From a virus (lineage: Duplodnaviria; Caudoviricetes), in IMG/VR virus record IMGVR_UViG_3300032167_000048: a DNA stretch of 64,000 bases; one strand, 5' to 3'. Both the position numbers and the translations under genes were made by a program. The notes under the pieces are model-generated. The model was not told the DNA's origin, made no database searches, and saw only the letters and a list, made by a program, of their open reading frames with translations. Of the stretch, positions 2,773-4,097 are shown piece after piece. Each line of letters begins with the position of its first letter. Position 1 is the stretch's first letter.

Positions 2773-2851
2773 TTGCAAGATAAGGATTTGAACCTTAGTT
2801 TAATCTTAGCTTTGCTATAAGATTCGTGTTATCCATTTACACTATCTTGCA
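2773..2851 (-). tRNA. tRNA-like element with no canonical anticodon loop (extended hairpin instead)
   Basis: Acceptor TGCAAGA/TCTTGCA; D-arm GTGT-AAATGGATA-ACAC; T-arm TAAGG-TTCAAAT-CCTTA; anticodon arm AATCT-TA-TAGC-AAA-GCTA-AGATT. Confidence 0.7.
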
Positions 2852-2858
2852 TTAATAT

Positions 2859-3260
2859 GTTATTCGCTATTTACCAGCCTTGCAGATGCTTATAGTCATG
2901 TACAACTAAACTAAACTGTATATCAAGGATTTTGTAAATCTTTATAACTTTACTATTTATTCTTTTAACTTTGACTCATGAAATAAACTTTGAATTTTTA
3001 ACTTTATTATTTGAGTTTTACAACTTTAAACTTTACAGTCCCACTATGTAAATATTTATCAATATTTGGCTATAAGTTTAACACACTTACCCATTTTGAT
3101 AAACAATCAAATAAAAAGATTTCCAATCTTTTCCTCTGTTGTTTTTCTAAATCTCAGCTTTTAAGAAGAAGAGGTGTTTCTTTATTGTTTTACATAAGTC
3201 TAAGCACCCCTAAAAGACTTATGAGTTGTAGTCTAAAGTTTTCAATAAACAGCGAATAAC
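2859..3260 (-). ncRNA. Putative ~400-nt structured non-coding RNA
   Basis: 15-bp closing helix 3246-3260 with 2859-2873; its single non-WC pair is G-U on the minus strand but A-C on plus; internal hairpins at 3193-3223 and 3114-3132; six AAAGTT repeats at 2946-3034; no minus-strand ORF in the track. Confidence 0.65.
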
Positions 3261-3296
3261 CAATTTATATTAACTACATAAGTAGCTTTCTACTAT

Positions 3297-3953
3297 TTAG
3301 TAGTTAACTTCAATTTCTGTAATTGCATTAGATACTGAAAGCGCAGCGTCTACTTCTGCCTTGAATGTGTTAATATGTTCTTCTAATGCGTTAATCTTAT
3401 CCAGAATCTTGATAGGGTCTACAAGTTCGTATGTATTTGCTTTAATGAACTGCATTCTAGCCTTTTCATATTCTTCTGTATTCACCTTGCCCTCTTTAGA
3501 ACCAAATGCACCAATTACATACTGTTCTGCTCTTTTTTCAAGTTCAGAGCCGTTTTCTCTAAGGATTTCAGCCTGAGCTCTGTTATACTGTTTCTGTAAT
3601 TCAAGGAGCATGTGTTCATCAAAAGTAACACCATGATTTTTCATTTCAATAGCTTCTGCCACTGTGTATTCAATACCATTAATTTTTACTTTTGTTACTG
3701 CGTTTGACAATACAACAGCTTTTTTAATAGCGTTTCTTCTCTTAATCAAATCAGATGCCTTGTCGTAGTTTCCCTGCATAACAGTTTTATATTCTTCAAC
3801 TGACACGCCTTTGATTTTATCGTTTGAATGTTTATTTGCTACACAAAATGAACCATTCATAATAGAAGAAAGAATTCTATTATCTAAAAGCTTTAATTCT
3901 GCTAATGCTTTATGAATTGTCATCTTTTCATTTGTTGCCATGATTTTCACCAT
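3297..3953 (-). CDS. Coiled-coil protein, N-terminus resembling DIP1984/DUF6847-like proteins (start may be 3941)
   Basis: MTIHKALAELKLLDNRI start; TVAEAI and VDAALSVSNAITEIEV motifs; family resemblance from memory only. Confidence 0.55.
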   Translation of the reverse strand: MVKIMATNEKMTIHKALAELKLLDNRILSSIMNGSFCVANKHSNDKIKGVSVEEYKTVMQGNYDKASDLIKRRNAIKKAVVLSNAVTKVKINGIEYTVAEAIEMKNHGVTFDEHMLLELQKQYNRAQAEILRENGSELEKRAEQYVIGAFGSKEGKVNTEEYEKARMQFIKANTYELVDPIKILDKINALEEHINTFKAEVDAALSVSNAITEIEVNY

Positions 3954-4027
3954 TTTAACCTTTCTTTTAAACTTTGAATCTTTTAAACTTTATTACACCA
4001 ACGTTTTATAGGCTAGACATTGGTAAA

Positions 4028-4097
4028 CAAGAACGGTGGGAGTCGAACCCACGTCTACGACTTAAAGTCATTGCTCTACCTACTGAGCTACATTCCC
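4028..4097 (-). tRNA. tRNA-like element with truncated anticodon arm (5-nt loop, or UUA in a 4-bp arm)
   Basis: GGGAATG...CGTTCTT acceptor with several G-U pairs; GCTC-AGTAGGTA-GAGC D-arm; GTGGG-TTCGACT-CCCAC T-arm; anticodon arm ATGAC-TTTAA-GTCGT is 2 nt short. Confidence 0.7.

Follow-up and report, generated by a model that had tools for sequence, protein, structure and literature searches.

The 64,000-nucleotide (nt) stretch of DNA analysed here (the window) is part of a 110-kb phage record in IMG/VR (IMGVR_UViG_3300032167_000048; Caudoviricetes; G+C 30%), with nearly all genes on the minus strand, and carries within a cluster of transfer RNA (tRNA) genes a gene for a 218-amino-acid protein followed by 402 nt devoid of open reading frames (ORFs). 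That ORF-free stretch is a conserved, pseudoknotted RNA with strong covariation, and its tie to the upstream gene is equally solid. The best explanation for the data is that one minus-strand transcription unit in the tRNA cluster encodes a protein–RNA pair. It may reasonably be inferred, in addition, that the two form a ribonucleoprotein, that the protein limits its own synthesis and that tRNA-style elements punctuate the transcript; taken together with the transcription unit itself, this complete explanation has in our judgement about an even chance of being right. All of the features listed in a preliminary description of the stretch, which had proposed such a unit, were found in place on the minus strand. 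The gene and the parts of the RNA are as follows.

3953–3297, minus strand: ORF of the 218-amino-acid protein (phrog_1491), mostly helical
3260–2859, minus strand: ORF-free non-coding RNA of 402 nt, with the two strands of helix P1 as its 5′ and 3′ ends
3260–3244 with 2875–2859, minus strand: P1, the closing helix; 17 pairs, both sides changed in 15, 91.7% of cells paired
3223–3215 with 3201–3193, minus strand: pseudoknot; 9 pairs, both sides changed in 8, 91.9% of cells paired
3210–3205 with 3176–3171, minus strand: P2 hairpin, crossed by the pseudoknot
3170–3039, minus strand: variable region of lineage-specific hairpins, about 35 to 190 nt long among relatives
3038–2940, minus strand: 7-nt repeat array, about 13 units NNYAAAG, including six AAAGUU
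2928–2878, minus strand: 3′ core, made up of P3, P5 and P4
2928–2924 with 2882–2878, minus strand: P3 of the core; 5 pairs, both sides changed in 3, 100% of cells paired
2918–2916 with 2885–2883, minus strand: P5; 3 pairs, both sides changed in 3, 94.4% of cells paired
2913–2910 with 2896–2893, minus strand: P4 hairpin with a conserved 13-nt loop, recognized by eye only, as MAFFT slipped there

The suggestion that the gap behind the gene is a structured RNA was strongly borne out when the sequence downstream of homologues was aligned for 30 lineages and covariation was counted against 500 shuffles and slid partners. Standard pairs filled 86.4% of cells compared with 67.5% for the shuffles, and both sides had changed in 35 of the 40 pairs. 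The covariation score was 0.552 against 0.222 for shuffled alignments; none of the 500 shuffles reached the observed value and slid partners gave at most 0.145. The column count for P2 was low (47.8%) through misalignment by MAFFT, and its stem sequences differ between lineages yet still pair. P1 had been described as a 15-bp helix (3260–3246 with 2873–2859); it is present with one G–U pair that exists on the minus strand only, extends to 17 bp, and appears alike in the minimum free energy and centroid folds (z-score −3.5). Neither the window nor the 110-kb record as a whole contained a second copy of the RNA.

A 23-nt imperfect inverted repeat flanking 372 nt could also belong to the DNA, either as the termini of a small mobile element or, with the short direct repeats read as iterons, as part of a replication origin, and TnpB insertions do lie near the module in relatives. 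The pairing of P1 includes G–U pairs that are possible on the gene's strand only, which counts against an inverted repeat at the DNA level; the helices and the pseudoknot covary, the orientation behind one gene is fixed, and the flanks carry no target-site duplication. We therefore regard a DNA element as highly improbable.

The repeat array is a further feature of the RNA. The six AAAGTT repeats lie exactly where they had been described, within 99 nt for which the window-wide rate would give 0.11 (Poisson 3e-9, approximately 2e-6 after correction for the number of intervals compared), and the 7-nt spacing that had been remarked on is backed by peaks at lags 7 and 14 in the autocorrelation of AAA across the array. 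A looser 10-mer showed no enrichment in the window as a whole (36 matches, 35 expected), and the repeat signal is therefore one of local clustering. Pairing of the conserved GAAAACUUUAAACUA with the AAAGUUUAAAGUU units was considered and dropped, as the 11-nt complement present in the clade of L003 (L-numbers such as L001, L003 and L088 denote viral loci fetched as relatives) is lost in other clades. As a separate observation, the variable region of the RNA contains T-arm-like hairpins, GGUUCAAAUCC and GGUUCAACUCC, in L057 and L071, and none in the window.

The RNA is not wholly new, as its 5′ 86 nt are already in Rfam as RAGATH-27 (RF03100). This orphan candidate small RNA matches 3256–3171 on the minus strand over model positions 1–86 of 86 (88 bits, gathering score 76.1), and the hairpin of the family, 7 bp with a 26-nt conserved loop, is present at 3210–3205 with 3176–3171. 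Relatives score 77–97 bits at the equivalent place, and more distant lineages of the RNA fall under the model threshold. The match is to the 5′ domain, about one fifth of the molecule: the Rfam model consists of one hairpin and 46 ‘unpaired’ conserved bases, whereas the RNA in the window runs approximately 316 nt further. Those ‘unpaired’ bases belong to P1, as its 5′ strand, and to the pseudoknot, as one of its arms; the catalogued RAGATH-27 is the first fifth of a larger RNA. The preliminary description had held that a match to an already characterized Rfam family would count against it; formally there is such a match, but the family is uncharacterized and accounts for only one fifth of the RNA. 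In a permissive Rfam search of the region and of the T5-like, Vibrio, Bacillus and Lactococcus loci, only RAGATH-27 covered the RNA, and at permissive E-values there was no match inside it to a ribozyme, RNase P, Y RNA or transfer-messenger RNA (tmRNA). In the literature library that was searched, no paper gave the name of RAGATH-27, and there was no description for DUF6847/DIP1984 or for a T5 non-coding RNA. Other orphan Rfam motifs occur within 2.5 kb of the module in related loci, namely RAGATH-36 (L064, L073 and L075), RAGATH-18 (L057), skipping-rope (L062), FuFi-1 (L030 and L033) and drum (L002, 3102–3209).

The preliminary description had also joined the RNA to the upstream protein gene, and sampling in both directions upheld this. 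In forward sampling, 80 viral loci were fetched through the protein and two annotated phages were added; a conserved 3′ domain of approximately 180 nt lay downstream of the gene on the same strand in all 82, and most of them had a RAGATH-27-like 5′ domain 20–54 nt past the stop codon. The 3′ domain also follows directly on the gene in five close relatives. In reverse sampling, 48 viral contigs were collected by the pattern of the RNA core and, after five that were cut by the edge of the locus had been set aside, the gene was found 304–474 nt upstream on the same strand in 41 of the 43 testable loci. The two exceptions (L122 and L139) represent a single phage whose RNA lost its 5′ end to a TnpB insertion and in which no gene was found.

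By tblastn the protein was found in 739 phage records, and an unannotated gap follows the gene in annotated phages: 360–500 nt in Escherichia phage SuperGirl (T5-like), Vibrio phage AG74, Bacillus phage BCP01 and Lactococcus phage 949, and about 1.2 kb in Clostridium phage D-1873. A profile of the 3′ domain matched D-1873 (E 9e-12), SuperGirl (4e-7), BCP01 (1.6e-5) and, more weakly, 949 (0.0075), and gave no clear match to the gap of AG74. Inspected by eye, the core helix, AAAUCC-NNNG...C-NNN-GGCUG, covaries throughout the distant phages including AG74 (CCUAG/CUAGG, CCACU/AGUGG, CCCUG/CAGGG, CUAUG/CAUAG). Adjacency and orientation of gene and RNA are strict down to 27% protein identity, across phages of Proteobacteria and Firmicutes.

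The TnpB element of L122 and L139 is of the IS605 type; its insertion into the RNA's 5′ domain, upstream of 7438 in L122 and of 7490 in L139, went with loss of the P1 strand and the gene. In L093 (1791–2900) an IS605-type TnpB has been inserted between gene and RNA.

Another explanation is that the RNA functions by itself or together with factors of the host, much as no protein is needed for the assembly of ROOL and GOLLD, in which case the gene would be a co-transcribed neighbour and the repeats would be structural or a sponge for a host protein or nuclease. ROOL and GOLLD are large, ornate phage and prophage RNAs without a known function that often adjoin tRNA genes, a precedent for a large phage RNA beside tRNAs that has no protein dedicated to it (PMC5737381). 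The RNA in the window has no sequence or model match to either and differs from both in its obligate neighbour protein gene and its 7-nt array. The 218-amino-acid protein matches no known RNA-binding family, and the repeats are A-rich single strands of a kind that many host RNA-binding proteins accept. Against an RNA acting alone are the strict adjacency and orientation just described, and the presence of similar units in the gene's own leader. We consider this explanation rather unlikely, although it is the most probable of the alternatives weighed here.

The protein itself gave a structural lead. No family was assigned by Pfam, NCBIfam or PADLOC, the hits to NTPase_1 (E 0.051) and AbiEi (E 0.035) being noise, and the label ‘tail fiber’ attached to PHROG 1491 is probably wrong and was unsupported by any result. 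The AlphaFold model (predicted local distance difference test, pLDDT, 95.5) is built of long helical hairpins that end in short strands. An exhaustive structural search placed the DIP1984-family structure 3KDQ first (Z 10.9, next row 7.4; 151 of 152 residues aligned at a root-mean-square deviation of 6.9), with the qualification that helical models reach such Z values easily, and Foldseek gave 3KDQ a probability of 0.91 at E 0.14, with no match in the PDB at E ≤0.001. A profile search of PDB sequences did not find 3KDQ and returned only designed helical bundles (E ≥0.03). Against PF20935 and the NCBIfam models for DUF6847/DIP1984 the protein had no match, and one of 69 homologues reached E 0.0075, among 21 other chance-level families. 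Of the likeness to DIP1984/DUF6847 that had been suggested from the N-terminus, a possible resemblance in fold is therefore supported and membership of the sequence family is not: 3KDQ is the best structural match of a predicted model some 65 residues longer, and the resemblance is a fold-level lead.

A homodimer was also predicted, with a model score of 0.65 compared with 0.00 for the best of three controls; the runs shared at least 95% of contacts and the partner pLDDT was at least 87. Among proteins of solved structure, 20 of 30 pairs of one chain reach the mark for a homodimer, compared with 1 of 23 single chains. As 3KDQ is a multi-chain crystal, the pass may reflect likeness to that solved structure.

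The elements that surround the gene and the RNA, and on which the proposed regulation and processing would depend, are these.

4097–4028, minus strand: upstream tRNA-like element; acceptor, D and T arms intact, anticodon stem capping a 5-nt loop
4024–3997, minus strand: leader hairpin of 7 bp, beginning 3 nt past the discriminator of the upstream tRNA-like element
3995–3959, minus strand: leader repeat units UAAAG, UAAAAG, UCAAAG and UAAAAG, running into the ribosome-binding site AAAGG
2851–2773, minus strand: downstream tRNA-like element, starting 7 nt past P1; 7-bp anticodon stem, 9-nt loop

Repeats like those of the RNA had been noticed in the leader of the gene, and this proved to hold in many lineages. 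Most lineages of the RAGATH-27 clade have two to four units of the RNA type after the hairpin and ahead of the ribosome-binding site, the T5-like phage has them in a weaker form, and across 27 lineages, which are not fully independent, the leader resembled the repeat tract of its own RNA beyond dinucleotide shuffles (Fisher p 5e-5). The conserved layout of hairpin, repeat units and ribosome-binding site suggests feedback control. We propose that a homodimer of the DIP1984 fold binds the single-stranded 7-nt units of the RNA to form a ribonucleoprotein particle, and that any excess of the protein would occupy the few units of this kind near the ribosome-binding site of its mRNA and so lower its own translation. 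TRAP at the trp leader and CsrA with CsrB offer parallels: a protein oligomer recognizes numerous short single-stranded units at even spacing, and units of like kind by a ribosome-binding site give translational control. The fold of the protein in the window is unrelated to either, the period here is 7 nt with the unit NNYAAAG, and binding by this protein is a prediction.

Both flanking elements are recognized by the Rfam tRNA model (RF00005; threshold 29), the upstream one at 57 bits and the downstream one at 48.9 bits. Neither has the anticodon arm of a decoding tRNA (5-bp stem, 7-nt loop, U33 and 3-nt anticodon), and for that reason both are classed as tRNA-like elements only. In a comparison with close relatives (84–87% protein identity, including L088, L090 and L093), the downstream element stood right after P1 in all of them (Rfam tRNA 45–48 bits). 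Between the type found in the window and L090 and that of L088 and L093, three acceptor pairs and one T-stem pair had changed on both sides, whereas the anticodon region is unrelated, with a 9-nt loop on 7 bp in the former and a 17-nt loop on 5 bp in the latter. At the upstream element the T stem and the D stem covary, and L090 and L093 have a 9–10-bp anticodon stem with a 60–75-nt insertion in place of the 5-nt loop of the window; L088 has a tRNA-Gln where the element would be. The insertion was considered as an intron and this was dropped: it sits on a 9–10-bp extension of the anticodon stem, allows no normal loop to be restored and is too short for a group I intron.

This pattern supports selection on the acceptor, D and T arms with the anticodon arms left free. 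The conserved parts of the cloverleaf are those read by RNase P and RNase Z, so that the pattern fits processing signals and not decoders. We suggest that a cut by RNase Z after the upstream element would give the mRNA a 5′ end 3 nt from a protective hairpin, and that a cut by RNase P before the downstream element would end the RNA 7 nt past P1. A protective 5′ stem-loop would stand at the position of the hairpin after RNase Z cleavage, and a hairpin begins 2–4 nt past the tRNA or tRNA-like element in six of the nine lineages that have one before the gene, the hairpin sequences being different. At the 3′ end of the RNA, many lineages have a tRNA within 5–60 nt and the Vibrio, Bacillus and Lactococcus phages have an intrinsic terminator. 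Thus both flanking tRNA genes in the lineage of the window may have given up decoding and been kept only as processing signals, where other lineages, with ordinary tRNAs or intrinsic terminators at the same spots, would use those instead. A short motif of the UAUAUA type stands just 3′ of P1 in many lineages (2858–2852 in the window; 3619–3630 in L003), and in L064 and L071 a GC-rich hairpin comes next, ahead of a tRNA; the motif may mark a site of processing or form a 3′ tail.

There is precedent for such end formation: in MALAT1/mascRNA, MEN-beta and the T4 stable RNAs 1 and 2, a tRNA-shaped element that lacks a functional anticodon arm, or a neighbouring tRNA, lets RNase P or RNase Z set the end of a long or stable non-coding RNA. 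MALAT1/mascRNA is eukaryotic and nuclear, the T4 RNAs are unrelated in sequence, and cleavage of the unit in the window is a proposal. The Rfam mascRNA model scored 23 bits on the element of a relative, which against a threshold of 42.5 is chance level.

Alternatively, the tRNA-like elements may be decaying tRNA genes, decoys for host nucleases directed at tRNA, or substrates for tRNA repair. The gene–RNA module does exist without them, these phage regions contain many tRNAs with odd anticodon loops, and tRNA-repair genes lie nearby (RtcB in L001, Thg1 and RlaP in L088); moreover, RNase P and RNase Z would cleave at a cloverleaf in whatever transcript contained one, so that processing could be a by-product. 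The acceptor, D and T stems show compensatory changes, which is at odds with plain decay, and a role outside processing is at odds with the exact spacing kept in relatives, where the hairpin follows 2–4 nt after the upstream element and P1 ends 7 nt before the downstream one. We rate this set of possibilities as unlikely, slightly more so than an RNA acting without the protein.

The upstream element could in principle be a working ochre suppressor with the anticodon UUA, and the downstream element could decode with an expanded loop. ARAGORN forces the upstream element into ‘tRNA-Stop(tta)’, and opening of the innermost stem pair would allow a 7-nt loop, CUUUAAG, although the Rfam alignment has a 5-bp stem with the 5-nt loop UUUAA and the relatives have a 60–75-nt insertion or a different loop. 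TAA ends 33 of 40 long genes in the window, reading any of the stop codons as sense gave no meaningful gain in frame length, and the frames are complete under the standard code. Suppression and expanded decoding can hardly be credited on these grounds, and processing is preferred for both elements.

Several points weigh against the complete explanation. The signal in the leader is weak in individual lineages (p 0.13 for the window) and absent in the most distant ones, and leaders rich in A are nothing unusual (in the window, 2 of 47 score as high). Helical folds easily give middling Z values, and no sequence family links the predicted structure to an RNA-binding fold. Nothing separates the gene from the RNA, which begins 37 nt after the stop codon and may be a 3′ untranslated region acting in cis instead of a free molecule. 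Finally, the next-closest viral loci (L003–L026, 75–76% protein identity) are without any flanking tRNA, and the bracket is thus dispensable. The two tRNA-like elements of the preliminary description's bracket are conserved in near relatives, with covarying acceptor, D and T arms, but the bracket lies outside the module that is conserved more widely.

The remainder of the transcription unit consists of the following elements.

4746–4630, minus strand: two tandem sigma-70-like promoters (TTGACA, 17 nt, TATAGT or TATACT), both extended with TG, 5′ of the tRNA cluster
4580–4437 region, minus strand: ORF of 47 codons with a good ribosome-binding site, 5′ of the tRNAs
4337–4248, minus strand: tRNA of 90 nt, anticodon UAU, variable arm long
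4244–4169, minus strand: tRNA-Gln(UUG)
2727–1564, minus strand: PcfJ-family gene, the next gene after the downstream tRNA-like element

The order on the minus strand is therefore promoters, 47-codon ORF, tRNA(UAU), tRNA-Gln, tRNA-like element, leader, 218-amino-acid gene, 402-nt RNA, tRNA-like element and PcfJ-family gene. Apart from the T arm of the tRNA-like element, a search for terminator-like sites between the promoters and 2727 found none. The two promoters are nearly identical because the region that holds them consists of a direct repeat of about 88 nt. In the window, in L093 (424–513), in L060 and in L071, the tRNA with anticodon UAU measures 90–96 nt and has a long variable arm, the shape of Leu, Ser and Tyr tRNAs; other lineages have a normal 74-nt tRNA-Ile(UAU) instead. 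Between the tRNA-Gln and the upstream tRNA-like element, AUCCUCCUUUCCUUUUU (4144–4128, minus strand) resembles the 3′ tail of 16S ribosomal RNA (the anti-Shine–Dalgarno sequence) and is kept in L090 and L093. AUCCUCCUUUCCUUUUU could pair with the ribosome-binding site of the gene (3968–3959) until processing removes it.

Beyond the module, related phages encode tmRNA (88.5 and 114.9 bits) and a type II hammerhead ribozyme. A Thg1-like enzyme and RlaP stand directly after the RNA in L088, and L001 has an RtcB ligase; these tmRNA and tRNA-repair or ribozyme genes are located at 1797–2166 and 3701–5657 in L088, 469–878 in L071, and 96–160 and 6693–7898 in L001. With tmRNA and tRNA-repair genes nearby, the neighbourhood is one rich in tRNA repair and translation rescue. 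Because the module has a constant home in tRNA arrays and tRNA-repair genes as neighbours, the proposed particle would most likely act on tRNA or the translation apparatus during infection. The units NN-(U/C)AA-A-G also read like the 7-nt anticodon loops of Leu(UAA/CAA)-type tRNAs. A bolder proposal, to which we attach little probability, is that these phages have an undescribed class of ribonucleoprotein in which dimers of the DIP1984 fold are arrayed on the 7-nt units of a doubly knotted RNA, which would limit itself through the leader repeats and be cut out by anticodon-less tRNA mimics, and whose mock anticodon loops could soak up a host nuclease or modification enzyme directed at tRNA.

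Hundreds of large phages, T5 relatives among them, thus carry a conserved pair formed by a protein gene and a large RNA, and only an 86-nt orphan fragment of the RNA had been catalogued. The Rfam model of RAGATH-27 needs correcting, as the bases it treats as ‘unpaired’ form the closing helix and the pseudoknot. With tRNA genes whose acceptor, D and T arms still covary although the normal anticodon arm has been lost, phages would have an equivalent of end formation in MALAT1/mascRNA. As cultivable phages carry the pair, its function is directly testable.

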